From a virus (lineage: Duplodnaviria; Heunggongvirae; Uroviricota; Caudoviricetes): a DNA stretch of 23,444 nt. The translations under genes were made by a program, and so were the position numbers. The stretch is taken from positions 1 through 23,444 of the IMG/VR virus record IMGVR_UViG_3300045988_101337. One strand, written 5' to 3'. Positions within the stretch are counted from its first letter, which is position 1. The number at the start of each line of letters is the position of its first letter. The notes under the pieces are model-generated. The model ran no database searches. It had not been told where the DNA came from and saw only the letters and a list, made by a program, of their open reading frames with translations. This document shows, piece by piece, positions 7,272-23,444 of the stretch.

Positions 7272-7952
7272 ATGAAACAATACAGCGAATTAGAAAACAA
7301 TGTTAAGAGATTCATTGTTGAGCATGAAAAAGGGATTTCTATTGATGATATTCATCATAAGTTCCGGATGAAGGATGGTCAGAATCGCAAGATGGCAGAT
7401 TATCTTATTAATAATAAAAAGATAATTTTGGAGATGAAAAGTCTTTTTTCTGACAGGGTCAAGAATGTCAATGATAAACTGAATGAGTTGGTTAAAACTG
7501 ATAGTTGGCTTGCAAAAAACTGGCATGGTGCTATTCATTTAGAAGAGTTGATAAAAAGACACCCAGACTCAAAGCGATTTAGAAATGATATAATGAACTT
7601 TGCTTATGAAAATATTAAAACAAAGATAGTTAAGGAAGCTAATAAGCAAATAAATGCAACAAAGGATGTTTTGGATTTAAATGACTCGATTGGCGGGTTG
7701 ATTTTGTTAAATGATAATGTCTTTTCACATGAGTCTAATTATTTGTCAGATGAAATATTATATTTGCTAGGCACAAAGAGATATTCGAGTGTTGAGTTTG
7801 TGGTTTATATTGCAAAATTGATTGATAAACAGGTTGATGTTTGTGTGCTACTTGACAGTCAATCTAAAAATAAAAATTATATTGAATGGTATATGAATAA
7901 TGTTTTTTTATTGAACTGGGCGTCTTTTAATAAATATGCAATAAAGATGTAG
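7272..7952 (+). CDS. Uncharacterised 226-aa protein in the variable A-cos locus (candidate defence protein)
   Basis: Long clean ORF with a GGGGGAAAG RBS, 27 bp after the small ORF and so probably co-transcribed. AT-rich and Lys/Asn-rich. No P2 counterpart. A possible D ... ExK arrangement (ADYLINNKKIILEMKS) is only a motif-level hint of a PD-(D/E)xK nuclease. Confidence 0.6.
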   Translation: MKQYSELENNVKRFIVEHEKGISIDDIHHKFRMKDGQNRKMADYLINNKKIILEMKSLFSDRVKNVNDKLNELVKTDSWLAKNWHGAIHLEELIKRHPDSKRFRNDIMNFAYENIKTKIVKEANKQINATKDVLDLNDSIGGLILLNDNVFSHESNYLSDEILYLLGTKRYSSVEFVVYIAKLIDKQVDVCVLLDSQSKNKNYIEWYMNNVFLLNWASFNKYAIKM

Positions 7953-8271: not shown

Positions 8272-9213
8272 TTAAGTTAATTTTAATGAATGGTACTCTA
8301 TCGAGCTGATTGTAGATGCGATATATTTACGATCATTTACAGAGAGTATTGCCGCTAGTAGACGACATACCAGAGCCTGCATTTGTAGCAATATATCGCT
8401 ACCATATTGACAATCATTGATACTAGAGAAACCAAGCGGTTGCCCATTAAAAATGGCTTCATGAAAATTATCATTGCGTATAACTGAAACATTACATTCA
8501 TCTGTTGCCCATGACGGGATTTTTACACCGTAATTTTCGCACATCCAATACACTCTATTTTGATGAGATGGTTTTTTCTCTTTAATGACTTTATCCCTTT
8601 CATCCCATGCTATAGCAAAACAGCAATCAAGAGCCATATAAAGATACTGGAATTTCTCAAAGGAAAGGTATAGTGGGTTATGTGACAGGAATAGGGAGTG
8701 TATCACCGCAGCTATTCTTTTAATGGAGCGATCATCTTTTTGTTTGTCTTTTATATAGTTAAGTGCTAGCTCTATTACTTCTTTTTCAGAGCATCCAACG
8801 AGAATAAAGTCGGTTAACTTAGTGGGCTTGATAGTGGTTGCATCAAGAAAACCAGCGTCAGTGGTTGTCAATCTTATACCCTTGAAAAAAGAGAGGCACC
8901 ACACAACAAAGTTGAGAGTTTCTAACGAGGATGTGTTTTTTAATTTTAGTGTGTGCGTTTTGGGCATGCCGAATACTCGGTAACTATAAGGCATTGTGCA
9001 TGTGTCACCATTAAGGTTATATACCTTTCGATTCCCAGGGTATATCCAACCATTAACAACGTTTTTATCATTGTTAATACGTTCCACGTTCTCAATAAGA
9101 CCGGGTAAAGTACGCAAAGAAAATTGTTCAGTCTCAATGTTAACTTCTACTGGATAGTATCCAAACTCCGAAATAATCTCATTTGGTTGCTGTTCGTCAA
9201 CTTCACCTTGCAT
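8272..9213 (-). CDS. Uncharacterised 313-aa protein with a C-terminal RNxxxH (HEPN-like) motif; candidate abortive-infection or defence effector occupying the P2 old position
   Basis: Clean 313-aa ORF on the minus strand with a GGAGA RBS upstream of the ATG at 9213. AT-rich. It contains RNDNFH (R-x4-H) near the C-terminus and a second R-x5-H (RIAAVIH). It is convergent with the 226-aa gene. No P2 homologue is recognisable. Confidence 0.6.
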   Translation of the reverse strand: MQGEVDEQQPNEIISEFGYYPVEVNIETEQFSLRTLPGLIENVERINNDKNVVNGWIYPGNRKVYNLNGDTCTMPYSYRVFGMPKTHTLKLKNTSSLETLNFVVWCLSFFKGIRLTTTDAGFLDATTIKPTKLTDFILVGCSEKEVIELALNYIKDKQKDDRSIKRIAAVIHSLFLSHNPLYLSFEKFQYLYMALDCCFAIAWDERDKVIKEKKPSHQNRVYWMCENYGVKIPSWATDECNVSVIRNDNFHEAIFNGQPLGFSSINDCQYGSDILLQMQALVCRLLAAILSVNDRKYIASTISSIEYHSLKLT

Positions 9214-18796: not shown

Positions 18797-19432
18797 ATGA
18801 ACACTCTCGCAAATATTCAGGAACTCGCGCGCGCACTGCGCAACATGATACGCACCGGCATTGTCGTCGAAACCGACCTTAACGCCGGTCGCTGCCGAGT
18901 GCAGACCGGCGGCATGTGCACCGACTGGCTTCAGTGGCTGACCCATCGCGCCGGACGTTCGCGCACATGGTGGGCACCTTCCGTGGGGGAACAGGTGCTG
19001 ATTCTGGCCGTGGGCGGTGAACTCGACACGGCGTTCGTTCTGCCGGGGATTTATTCCGGCGATAACCCTGCGCCGTCTGCGTCGGCTGATGCCCTGCATA
19101 TCCGTTTCCCTGACGGGGCGGTGATTGAGTATGAACCCGAAACCAGTGCACTCACGGCAAGCGGAATTAAAACGGCCAGCGTGACGGCTTCTGATTCTGT
19201 TACTGCCACGGTACCGGTGGTCACGGTGAAAGCGTCAACCCGTGTCACCCTGGACACACCGGAAGTGGTCTGCACTAACAAACTGACTACCGGCACGCTG
19301 GAAGTGCAGAGGGGCGGGACGATGCGCGGCAACATTGAACACACCGGCGGTGAACTCTCATCAAACGGTAAGGTACTGCATACCCACAAACACCCCGGCG
19401 ACAGCGGCGGCACAACCGGGAGTCCTTTATGA
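18797..19432 (+). CDS. V: Baseplate central spike protein (211 aa)
   Basis: 211-aa ORF, the same length as P2 gpV, first in the V-W-J-I baseplate operon. Confidence 0.9.
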   Translation: MNTLANIQELARALRNMIRTGIVVETDLNAGRCRVQTGGMCTDWLQWLTHRAGRSRTWWAPSVGEQVLILAVGGELDTAFVLPGIYSGDNPAPSASADALHIRFPDGAVIEYEPETSALTASGIKTASVTASDSVTATVPVVTVKASTRVTLDTPEVVCTNKLTTGTLEVQRGGTMRGNIEHTGGELSSNGKVLHTHKHPGDSGGTTGSPL

Positions 19433-19776
19433 CAGCGCGTTATCTCGGAATGAATCGCAGTGATGGCCTGACGGTCACTGACCTTGAGCATATCAGCCAG
19501 AGTATCGGCGATATCCTGCGCACACCGGTCGGCTCACGGGTGATGCGTCGTGATTACGGCTCGTTGCTGGCGTCAATGATTGACCAGCCGCAGACTCCGG
19601 CGCTTGAGTTGCAGATTAAGGTCGCCTGTTACATGGCAGTGCTGAAATGGGAACCCCGCGTCACCCTGTCATCCGTCACCACGGCGCGCAGTTTTGACGG
19701 GCGAATGACTGTCACGTTAACCGGCCAGCACAACGACACCGGCCAGTCACTTTCGTTAACCATCCCTGTGAGTTGA
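19429..19776 (+). CDS. W: Baseplate wedge protein W (gp25-like, 115 aa)
   Basis: 115-aa ORF, the same length as P2 gpW, translationally coupled to V (overlap at 19429-19432). Confidence 0.9.
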   Translation: MTARYLGMNRSDGLTVTDLEHISQSIGDILRTPVGSRVMRRDYGSLLASMIDQPQTPALELQIKVACYMAVLKWEPRVTLSSVTTARSFDGRMTVTLTGQHNDTGQSLSLTIPVS

Positions 19777-19780
19777 AACC

Positions 19781-20689
19781 ATGCCGATTATCGACCTGAA
19801 CCAGCTACCCGCACCGGATGTGGTCGAGGAGCTGGACTTTGAAACCATTCTCGCTGAACGCAAGGCGACACTGATTTCCCTTTACCCGGAAGACCAGCAG
19901 GAGGCGGTCGCCCGTACCCTGACGCTGGAATCCGAGCCTCTCGTCAAACTGCTGGAGGAAAATGCTTATCGTGAGCTTATCTGGCGTCAGCGTGTGAATG
20001 AGGCCGCACGGGCGGTAATGCTGGCCTGTGCCGCCGGTAATGACCTTGATGTGATTGGTGCCAATTACAACACCACGCGCCTGATTATCACCCCGGCAGA
20101 TGATTCGACCATCCCGCCGACACCGGCAGTGATGGAGTCTGACACTGATTATCGTCTGCGTATTCAGCAGGCGTTTGAGGGCTTAAGCGTCGCCGGGTCG
20201 GTGGGAGCCTATCAGTATCATGGTCGCAGTGCTGACGGGCGTGTCGCGGATATCTCTGTCACCAGTCCGTCTCCGGCCTGTGTCACTATCTCTGTGCTGT
20301 CACGTGAAAATAACGGTGTCGCATCCGAAGACCTGCTGGCTGTGGTACGTAACGCCCTTAATGACGAGGACGTCAGGCCGGTGGCCGACCGCGTGACCGT
20401 GCAGTCTGCTGCCATCGTTGAATACCAGATAAACGCCACGCTTTACCTTTACCCTGGTCCCGAAAGCGAACCCATTCGCGCTGCCGCCGTGAAAAAACTG
20501 GAAGCGTATATCACGGCACAGCACCGGCTGGGGCGCGACATCCGTCTGTCTGCCATTTATGCCGCTTTGCATGTGGAAGGCGTGCAGCGTGTCGAACTGG
20601 CTGCACCGCTGGCCGACATCGTGCTCAACAATACGCAGGCGTCTTTCTGTACCGAATACAGCGTCGTGACCGGAGGCTCGGATGAGTGA
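19781..20689 (+). CDS. J: Baseplate wedge protein J (302 aa)
   Basis: 302-aa ORF, the same length as P2 gpJ, in the syntenic position. Confidence 0.9.
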   Translation: MPIIDLNQLPAPDVVEELDFETILAERKATLISLYPEDQQEAVARTLTLESEPLVKLLEENAYRELIWRQRVNEAARAVMLACAAGNDLDVIGANYNTTRLIITPADDSTIPPTPAVMESDTDYRLRIQQAFEGLSVAGSVGAYQYHGRSADGRVADISVTSPSPACVTISVLSRENNGVASEDLLAVVRNALNDEDVRPVADRVTVQSAAIVEYQINATLYLYPGPESEPIRAAAVKKLEAYITAQHRLGRDIRLSAIYAALHVEGVQRVELAAPLADIVLNNTQASFCTEYSVVTGGSDE

Positions 20690-21212
20690 TTCGCGACTGC
20701 TGCCGACCGGCTCATCACCGCTTGAAGTCGCCGCCGCAAAAGCCTGTGCGGAAATTGAAAAAACGCCGGTCAGTATTCGTGAGCTGTGGAACCCGGACAC
20801 CTGCCCGGCAAATCTGCTGCCGTGGCTGGCGTGGGCCTTTTCGGTCGACAGGTGGGATGAAAAGTGGCCGGAAGCGACAAAACGCGCCGTTATCCGCGAT
20901 GCCTATTTCATCCACTGTCATAAAGGCACTATAGGTGCAATCCGGCGTGTGGTGGAGCCGCTGGGCTATCTCATCAACGTGACGGAGTGGTGGGAAAACA
21001 GTGACCCGCCAGGCACCTTCCGGCTTGATATTGGTGTACTGGAAAGCGGCATCACAGAGGCAATGTATCAGGAAATGGAACGGCTTATTGCTGATGCCAA
21101 ACCTGCAAGCCGTCATCTTATTGGCCTGAACATTACCCGGGACATTCCCGGCTACCTGTTCGCCGGTGGTGTGGCTTACGACGGCGATGTAATTACGGTT
21201 TACCCCGGATAA
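20682..21212 (+). CDS. I: Baseplate wedge protein I (176 aa)
   Basis: 176-aa ORF, the same length as P2 gpI, overlapping the J stop. Confidence 0.9.
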   Translation: MSDSRLLPTGSSPLEVAAAKACAEIEKTPVSIRELWNPDTCPANLLPWLAWAFSVDRWDEKWPEATKRAVIRDAYFIHCHKGTIGAIRRVVEPLGYLINVTEWWENSDPPGTFRLDIGVLESGITEAMYQEMERLIADAKPASRHLIGLNITRDIPGYLFAGGVAYDGDVITVYPG

Positions 21213-21222
21213 GTGAGGAATA

Positions 21223-23444
21223 ATGAGCACAAAATTCAAAACCGTTATCACCACTGCCGGTGCAGCAAAGCTGGCAGCGGCAACCGCACCGGGAGGGCGG
21301 AAGGTCAACATTACCACGATGGCCGTCGGGGATGGCGGTGGTAAATTGCCTGTCCCGGATGCCGGACAGACCGGGCTTATCCACGAAGTCTGGCGACATG
21401 CGCTGAACAAAATCAGCCAGGACAAACGAAACAGTAATTATATTATCGCAGAGCTGGTTATTCCGCCGGAGGTGGGCGGTTTCTGGATGCGTGAGCTTGG
21501 CCTGTACGATGATGCGGGAACGTTAATTGCCGTGGCGAACATGGCCGAAAGTTATAAACCCGCACTTGCCGAAGGCTCAGGGCGTTCGCAGACCTGCCGC
21601 ATGGTCATCATCGTCAGCAGTGTGGCCTCAGTGGAGCTGACCATTGACACCACAACGGTGATGGCGACGCAGGATTACGTTGATGACAAAATTGCAGAGC
21701 ACGAACAGTCACGACGTCACACGGACGCCTCGCTGACCGCAAAAGGTTTTACTCAGTTAAGCAGTGCGACCAACAGCACGTCTGAAACACTGGCCGCAAC
21801 GCCGAAAGCGGTAAAGGCCGCGTATGACCTTGCTAACGGGAAATATACCGCACAGGACGCCACCATAGCGCGAAAAGGCCTTGTCCAGCTCAGTAGTGCC
21901 ACCAACAGCACGTCTGAAACGCTCGCCGCAACGCCGAAAGCGGTAAAGGCAGCATATGACCTTGCTAACGGGAAATACACTGCACAGGACGCCACCACAA
22001 CGCGAAAAGGCCTTGTTCAGCTCAGTAGCGCCACCAACAGTGATTCTGAAACGCTTGCGGCAACGCTAAAGGCGGTAAAGGCTGCGTATGACCTTGCTAA
22101 CGGGAAATACACTGCACAGGATGCCACCACCGCGCGAAAAGGTCTTGTCCAGCTAAGTAGCGCCACCAACAGTGATTCTGAAACACTGGCCGCAACACCA
22201 AAAGCGGTGAAGTCTGCCTATGACAATGCTGAAAAACGTCTTCAGAAAGATCAGAATGGTGCGGATATTCCGGGAAAGGATACCTTCACGAAAAATATCG
22301 GTGCCTGTCGTGCTTATAGCGGCGCTTTGAGTACTGAAGCCGGAAACTGGACAACCGCTCAGTTTATTGAATGGCTGGATTCCCGTGGTGCATTTAATCA
22401 TCCGTACTGGATGTGCAAAGGCTCCTGGTCATATGCAAATAACAAAATCATTACGGATACCGGATGTGGTGATATCCACCTGGCTGGTTGTGTCGTCGAG
22501 GTCATGGGAATTAAATCTGCAATCACTATCCGAGTGACCACGCCGACAACATCAAGTGGTGGCGGTACAACCAGCGCGCAATTCACTTACATTAATCATG
22601 GGGACGGCTACTCCCCCGGCTGGCGTCGTGACTGGAATCGTCAGGGCGACGAAATGACCGGAACGATTAATCAGGACGGCGGTAGCCAGAATGCCTATAT
22701 GTCTACGGCCTTATGTTCAGGCACCAGAGGCGGCAAAAAATATCTCAGAAAGTTTCGTGGTGGAGAAGGAGACACTGTCTGGCATGAAACAGTACAGGGC
22801 GGGGTAGTTCGCTGGGCGACTGGTAATACTGATGCTCAGGAAGAATTATCACTCAGCTCCGCTTATGGTCTCCGTTCAAGAGGTGAGATTACATCACTCA
22901 GTGCTAATGGTCTGCGCATTGCTTATGGCAATTATGGATTCTTTATCAGGAATGATGGCGGCAGCACATATTTAATGCTGACGGCCTCTGGCGATAAATT
23001 TGGGACATGGAACGGTTTAAGGCCGCTGACTATCAATAACGCCAATGGCGGAGTGTCAATGGGGCATGGCCTGAGTGTTACAGGTGATATTGTCTCAAGT
23101 ACCAAAGTACGTGCCGGTAGCGGGAAAAAGTTCACGGTCAGCAGCAGCAATACATCCACGAAGGAAGCCGCATTCAATTTGTGGGGAAACTCAAGTCGTC
23201 CGGTGGTGGCTGAATTAGGTGATGATGCAGGCTGGCATTTTTACAGTCAGAGAAATACAGATAACAGCATCACTTTTGCTGTTAACGGGCAGGTATCACC
23301 ATCTAACTATAGTAATTTTGATTCACGCTATGTCCGGGATATCCGGCTTGGTGGTGCTGCCACATACAAACCTGCGAACAATGGCATGACATGGACACAT
23401 CAGGCACCGTCCGGGTGTGTATATTCCGGCATTATTGTTCAGGA
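21223..23444 (+). CDS. H: Tail fibre protein H (partial; continues beyond the 3' end of the window)
   Basis: ATG at 21223 follows a GTGAGGAATA RBS. The open frame runs uninterrupted to the window end (over 740 codons). The N-terminus (MSTKFKTVITTAGAAKLAAATAPG) and the repeat motif are P2 H-like from memory. Minus-strand ORFs in this span are frame shadows. Confidence 0.9.
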   Translation, partial: MSTKFKTVITTAGAAKLAAATAPGGRKVNITTMAVGDGGGKLPVPDAGQTGLIHEVWRHALNKISQDKRNSNYIIAELVIPPEVGGFWMRELGLYDDAGTLIAVANMAESYKPALAEGSGRSQTCRMVIIVSSVASVELTIDTTTVMATQDYVDDKIAEHEQSRRHTDASLTAKGFTQLSSATNSTSETLAATPKAVKAAYDLANGKYTAQDATIARKGLVQLSSATNSTSETLAATPKAVKAAYDLANGKYTAQDATTTRKGLVQLSSATNSDSETLAATLKAVKAAYDLANGKYTAQDATTARKGLVQLSSATNSDSETLAATPKAVKSAYDNAEKRLQKDQNGADIPGKDTFTKNIGACRAYSGALSTEAGNWTTAQFIEWLDSRGAFNHPYWMCKGSWSYANNKIITDTGCGDIHLAGCVVEVMGIKSAITIRVTTPTTSSGGGTTSAQFTYINHGDGYSPGWRRDWNRQGDEMTGTINQDGGSQNAYMSTALCSGTRGGKKYLRKFRGGEGDTVWHETVQGGVVRWATGNTDAQEELSLSSAYGLRSRGEITSLSANGLRIAYGNYGFFIRNDGGSTYLMLTASGDKFGTWNGLRPLTINNANGGVSMGHGLSVTGDIVSSTKVRAGSGKKFTVSSSNTSTKEAAFNLWGNSSRPVVAELGDDAGWHFYSQRNTDNSITFAVNGQVSPSNYSNFDSRYVRDIRLGGAATYKPANNGMTWTHQAPSGCVYSGIIVQ
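21739..22230 (+). repeat. Four in-frame tandem repeats of 132 bp (44 aa) inside tail fibre gene H; the last copy is partial
   Basis: Copies begin at 21739, 21871, 22003 and 22135. The protein unit is RKGLVQLSSATNS(T/D)SETLAATPKAVKAAYDLANGKYTAQDATT. Copies differ at synonymous sites. The internally duplicated minus-strand ORF 21753..21998 is a by-product of this repeat. Confidence 0.85.

Follow-up and report, generated by a model that had tools for sequence, protein, structure and literature searches.

The tail-fibre gene H of the prophage described here contains, as judged from its sequence, an array of four tandem, diverged units of the Phage_fiber_2 family (PF03406) with a period of 44 amino acids. 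The array is an old inherited allele, the units of which have not been homogenised and are each under purifying selection. The window, by which we mean the whole stretch of 23,444 nucleotides that was analysed, is an integrated P2-like (Peduovirus) prophage with around 97% identity to P2 across most of its length. Gene H (21223–23444, plus strand) is still open at the end of the window, and the part present comprises its 5' 2,222 nucleotides, or 740 codons. It is preceded by homologues of V, W, J and I, as in P2; the open reading frames at 18797–21212 match these four genes in order and size, and H then follows. The H gene of the E. coli SBF45 prophage (WP_089633333, 772 amino acids, annotated 'tail fiber protein') differs from that of the window by 1 nucleotide over 2,222 and has the same four-unit array, followed by the same type of distal module, similar to that of Mu S'. 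In SBF45, a tail fibre assembly gene comes after H; in the window, this position, that of gene G, lies beyond the end.

The protein starts with a tail-collar, baseplate-attachment domain (residues 1–151; 21223–21675, plus strand), recognised as Pfam PF12571 with 198 bits (197.7) and homologous to that of P2 H. The first 726 nucleotides of the gene, which cover this domain, the first unit and the first 25 codons of the second unit, have 96.6% nucleotide identity to P2. Residues 1–134 are modelled by AlphaFold2 with pLDDT values of 74 to 94. On the basis of the PF12571 domain and the gene order, the protein is a P2-type tail fibre, with a predicted role as a trimeric, receptor-binding side-fibre. 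Elsewhere in the window, in the interval that separates the gpA-like replication gene from the Q/portal end, two open reading frames were noticed at 7272–7952 (plus strand, 226 amino acids) and 8272–9213 (minus strand, 313 amino acids), neither of which gave a match in Pfam or PADLOC. In P2, this is where the tin/old cargo slot lies. Anti-phage genes are known to concentrate there, which makes the two reading frames candidate cargo genes.

Tandem Repeats Finder reports a single array at 21769–22224, with a period of 132 base pairs, 3.5 copies, 88% matches, no indels and a score of 674, far above chance. The period corresponds to 44 amino acids and the spacing is uniform. In the reading frame of H, the units start at 21742, 21874, 22006 and 22138, equivalent to residues 174, 218, 262 and 306, and the first three are full copies of 44 codons. 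Unit 1 (residues 174–217; 21742–21873, plus strand) reads KGFTQLSSATNSTSETLAATPKAVKAAYDLANGKYTAQDATIAR and is 100% identical to the first unit of several relatives. Unit 2 (residues 218–261; 21874–22005, plus strand) is the unit in which the homology to reference P2 stops, at codon 25. Unit 3 (residues 262–305; 22006–22137, plus strand) carries a rare substitution, discussed below. Unit 4 is terminal and consists of the conserved core only (residues 306–334; 22138–22224, plus strand), as delimited by Tandem Repeats Finder, translation, Pfam and comparison of the units. It is conserved for only about 29 codons, up to AVKSAYD (approximately position 22224), where it leaves into KRLQKDQNGADIP; the sequence downstream of this AVKSAYD motif reads NAEKRLQKDQNGADIP.

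Pfam finds four separate PF03406 stretches with 253.3 bits, against a gathering score of 22, and each of the four units aligns to the model nearly end to end. Members of this family are repeats of roughly 40 residues found inside phage tail-fibre proteins. The 44-residue period, the tail-collar amino-terminus and the distal parts, which resemble Mu S and T4 gp34, agree with this definition, and the units of the window are of the same kind as the tandem units of the family, with no substantial difference. The initial annotation had described a four-unit array of 44 amino acids and 132 base pairs at 21739–22230, which is borne out by Tandem Repeats Finder, the translation and the four PF03406 matches, with coordinates that are right to within a few bases.

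The third unit has a CTA codon at 22066–22068 (residue 282), encoding a leucine in place of the AATPKAVK proline, which is near-invariant across units. This substitution is present in only one of 80 related loci; alignment A1 has the corresponding proline without exception in one unit register (P85) and almost without exception in the following one (P129). Inside the array there is also an antisense open reading frame (21753–21998, minus strand, 81 amino acids), which is internally repeated and which we interpret as a by-product of the repeat array. An RNA element at the array was considered and rejected; an Rfam search of the whole window found no family.

The number of units was counted in relatives of the window with a hidden Markov model (HMM) made from its four units. 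A protein-homologue search gave almost only short proteins labelled 'partial', and the census was instead made by locus retrieval and the unit model. Among 80 close IMG/VR loci, in which the amino-terminal domain of H is at least 98% identical to that of the window, one unit is present in 4 loci, two in 24, three in 3, four in 41 and five in 8. A wider census of 80 loci, with one genome per species and amino-terminal identities of 55–94%, gave one unit in 37 loci, two in 24, three in 15 and four in 4, so that one unit is the commonest state across species; these counts remained unchanged through two rounds of rebuilding the model. Arrays of three to five units are concentrated in phages of Escherichia, Enterobacter and Citrobacter, while the more distant genera mostly have one unit. 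The first unit starts at the same point past the amino-terminal domain, around residues 169–170, in all 160 related loci. A stretch that covers 80% or more of the amino-terminus, array and junction is present in 378 of 5,426 complete E. coli genomes, which is an upper estimate for the four-unit version, as this coverage also lets in some two-unit alleles; many of the sampled rows from these genomes are colinear with the window, with no change in length. Examples from named phages are vB_YpM_46, with four units, P37, with three, and P2, with two.

Four units is therefore a high number for the family as a whole and a normal one for P2-like phages of Escherichia. The initial annotation gave two units for P2 H and called the array of the window expanded. 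The figure for P2 is correct, as reference P2 H (AF063097, 669 amino acids) has two units against four in the window; the idea of an unusual expansion is not sustained, four being the modal count in close P2-like relatives. The array itself is real, old and maintained, and its four-unit allele is the commonest in P2-like prophages of E. coli. The difference from P2 comes down to the allele that happens to serve as the reference, which is of another class: its unit 2 is joined to a different exit, leaving into TVMDETNKKAPLNSPALTG, and it has another distal part. The H gene of Yersinia phage vB_YpM_46 (encoding 764 amino acids) shares with the window the four-unit array and the Mu-S'-like distal module, with 97.2% identity over 2,129 nucleotides; its product differs in its carboxy-terminal tip, from residue 711 onwards.

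Database proteins similar to H are mostly labelled 'partial', several stem from short contigs and some end inside the array. The array looks like a place where short-read assemblies often break, an impression that is biased in so far as the protein search seemed to favour short proteins. These truncated proteins are also the reason to ask if the repeat number could have been miscounted in the source assembly. Such an artefact is extremely improbable and was rejected: the units have diverged enough to be assembled unambiguously, the complete SBF45 genome has the 1-nucleotide difference mentioned above, and many independent complete genomes are colinear with the window.

Analysis of the divergence between the units points to their age. 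Units 1 to 3 differ pairwise at 16 to 25 of 132 nucleotides and unit 4 differs from the others at 12 to 18 of 87, so that 12–19% of nucleotides differ between units of the window; no two units are identical at the nucleotide level. Over the comparable parts, the Nei-Gojobori method gives dS values of 0.44–1.2 and dN/dS ratios of 0.04–0.14, with a synonymous excess that is significant for all six pairs of units (Fisher p between 2e-4 and 1e-6). The amino-terminal domain, compared between the window and the 80 close relatives, has a median dS of only 0.07. When the conserved cores of four-unit arrays (n = 42) are compared, identity between loci is 0.91–0.95 for units at the same position and 0.75–0.87 for units at different positions, and the values within a locus are the same as those between loci. 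The units are therefore positional orthologues, which have not undergone concerted evolution, and the duplications are older than the divergence of these prophages. Orthologous dN/dS ratios are 0.04–0.09 at every unit position. The views, put forward from the window sequence in the initial annotation, that the copies differ mostly at synonymous sites, do not derive from recent slippage and are kept by purifying selection are thus in agreement with these values.

The four units could in principle have arisen recently and in this lineage alone, by replication slippage or unequal crossing-over from the two units of P2; in favour of this, reference P2 has two units and recent duplications do occur elsewhere. 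Two loci of the close census, L002 and L023, have identical cores in units 2 and 3, unlike all other loci, which points to a recent duplication or conversion there. For the window, we give this explanation next to no credence. Its units are far too different from each other at synonymous sites, dozens of other prophages carry a near-identical orthologue of each at the same position, and four is the modal count; recent slippage was rejected on the basis of the positional-orthology matrices.

Where the array ends, the protein continues with a junction, EKRLQKDQNGADIPG (residues 335–349; 22225–22269, plus strand), which is shared with Mu S and is followed by three distinct distal modules in relatives of the window. 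Two types of exit from the array can be distinguished. The first, AVKTVMDETNKKAPLNSPALTG, is P2-like and occurs after one or two units, while the second, AVKSAYDNAEKRLQKDQNGADIP, is like that of Mu S and occurs after three to five units. After the Mu-S-type exit, at least three unrelated distal modules have been found, and four-unit arrays are located ahead of two of them. In the window, residues 334–488 (22222–22686, plus strand) form a module like that of the Mu S' tail fibre (PDB entry 8ju3, with a domain i-Evalue of 4e-69). Further on, residues 540–737 (22840–23433, plus strand; Pfam PF21446; PDB entries 5yvq, 4uxe and 5nxf) form a module like Mu S and T4 gp34, of which residues 540–604 correspond to a T4 gp34-type Pfam domain and residues 544–737 resemble the Mu S and T4 gp34 entries of the PDB. 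The distal part of H (22222–23433) is a mosaic, with residues 334–488 resembling Mu S' and residues 544–737 resembling Mu S and T4 gp34. In Mu itself (S and S'; PDB entries 5yvq, 8ju3 and 9ki1), an exit like that of the window (…AVKIAMDNANARLAKDRNGADIP) comes after the only unit of the S protein, which differs from the protein of the window in this unit number and in its amino-terminal attachment domain.

Across relatives, the total length of H increases by only 7 to 21 residues per unit rather than by 44, and the distal module therefore dominates the total length. Any effect of the units on length is minor relative to that of the distal modules. This bears on the proposal that the number of units is adaptively tuned for fibre reach, for example to the depth of O-antigen or capsule or to the distal module attached. 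It is a strong form of the suggestion in the initial annotation that repeat number may set the length of the fibre shaft. The unit count does correlate with the type of exit and distal part (one or two units for the P2 type, three to five for the Mu S type), at least two kinds of distal module follow arrays in which four units are kept, purifying selection acts at each unit position, and the larger arrays are concentrated in the three genera named above. However, the number of units explains little of the total length of H, and the link between count and exit could be simple linkage by descent. We consider adaptive tuning unlikely.

Several observations suggest recombination within the array. 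Counts from one to five units coexist on amino-terminal domains that are at least 98% identical. Most pairs of units of the window share exact runs of 20 to 35 nucleotides, with units 2 and 4 sharing only 11. In the four-unit loci (n = 42), the units have pS values of 0.18–0.27, three to four times the 0.065 of the amino-terminal domain. Sites that are diagnostic for a paralogue are polymorphic in 67% of cases, compared to 13% for the remaining sites. Of the 82 minor alleles, 66 are equal to the state of a paralogue, where 35 would be expected. Taken together, this suggests patchy conversion between units or unequal crossing-over, with a signal that is confounded because third codon positions, where mutation is biased, make up most of the diagnostic sites. 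Matches of the window to other phages also break off in the array or at its edge. Those to P2 and Wphi stop at nucleotide 726 of H, which is codon 25 of unit 2. Others stop at nucleotide 990, which is the equivalent codon of unit 4, close to where its conserved core ends, and at nucleotide 1049, slightly beyond the nominal limit of that unit. From these end points, we infer that the unit cores may serve as recombination joints.

Taken further, the units might persist mainly as patches of DNA homology, acting as recombination linkers for the exchange of distal modules among unrelated phages, with any role in the protein being secondary. Such a function fits with the stopping of homology inside or at the edge of units, with the elevated pS of the units and with their wide distribution. 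Mu S contains this unit too, as do many other fibre fragments from E. coli, where arrays reach seven units or more; lambda Stf is the protein in which the Pf2 repeat was originally recognised (PMC3368898). In the E. coli fragments (P0122–P0131), which have at least seven PF03406 units, spacings of 44 and 56 amino acids are mixed, whereas those of the window are uniformly 44; the longer linker in the fragments, of 56-residue spacing, reads AGKAPSSHTHPWNQITGVP. Low dN/dS ratios (0.04–0.14) combined with free synonymous drift are, however, the opposite of what selection for DNA identity would produce, and we regard it as quite improbable that the units are kept chiefly as DNA linkers.

Prediction of the structure of the repeats gave low confidence throughout. 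An AlphaFold2 monomer model of residues 150–363, made with an alignment of 40 sequences, has a mean pLDDT of 38, too low to be of use. A model of residues 1–305, made with a more diverse alignment of 51 sequences, has a confident amino-terminal domain, with pLDDT values below 50 for the repeats. In both models, a helix of about 11 residues is present at PKAVKAAYDLA, recurring every 44 residues (pLDDT below 50), and neither of these low-confidence monomer models (pLDDT below 50 in the repeats) contains a continuous coiled coil or beta-helix. Sequence searches of the PDB find the unit only in the Mu S and S' entries, with one unit in each, as a match at the level of sequence. In the in-situ study of Mu, the model of gp49 is limited to 'the N-terminus', with no residue range given. 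Rotary-shadowing electron microscopy of an E. coli prophage fibre protein led its authors to read the Pf2 region as globular and located between stalks, and they state that little is known about the repeat (PMC3368898). One published contact-based model of the PF03406 repeat was reported as poor, and our search of the literature on PF03406, or Phage_fiber_2, turned up no work on the structure or function of the unit.

The explanation that we favour combines these elements. Four PF03406 units are placed between the baseplate-attachment domain and the exchangeable, receptor-binding distal modules of a P2-type fibre, and the array is inherited as an old allele in which selection on the protein keeps the units while synonymous sites drift apart. 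Each 44-residue unit, contributed by three chains, most likely forms one short segment of the proximal shaft, consisting of an extended stretch and then a short helix at PKAVKAAYDLA, so that each additional unit would add a fixed increment to a spacer. The exact runs of 20 to 35 nucleotides in the conserved cores would allow occasional unequal crossing-over or gene conversion, which would account for the polymorphism of one to five units in close relatives, and the cores may also be the joints where distal modules are swapped. As a whole, the explanation, i.e. an old and selected PF03406 array acting as a modular proximal shaft or spacer, with cores that permit unequal recombination, is probably correct. 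A more specific form of it is rather unlikely, though worth stating: the number of units, from one to five, could be a selectable length dial, which unequal recombination between units would adjust to suit the distal module or the depth of the host's surface polysaccharide, with patchy conversion explaining the three- to four-fold higher synonymous diversity of the units relative to the neighbouring domain.

As a discovery, the array is modest. It consists of a curated Pfam repeat in the commonest allele of a well-sampled gene, and named phages carry the four-unit allele, as do some 380 complete E. coli genomes at most. The comparison does call for caution in the use of reference P2, which is a poor guide to its own clade as regards the number of units. 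The census provides a natural series of one to five units on a near-constant amino-terminus, which is usable to test the role of tail-fibre repeats as length spacers, and it could steer the choice of fusion points in engineered delivery particles based on P2 and P4.
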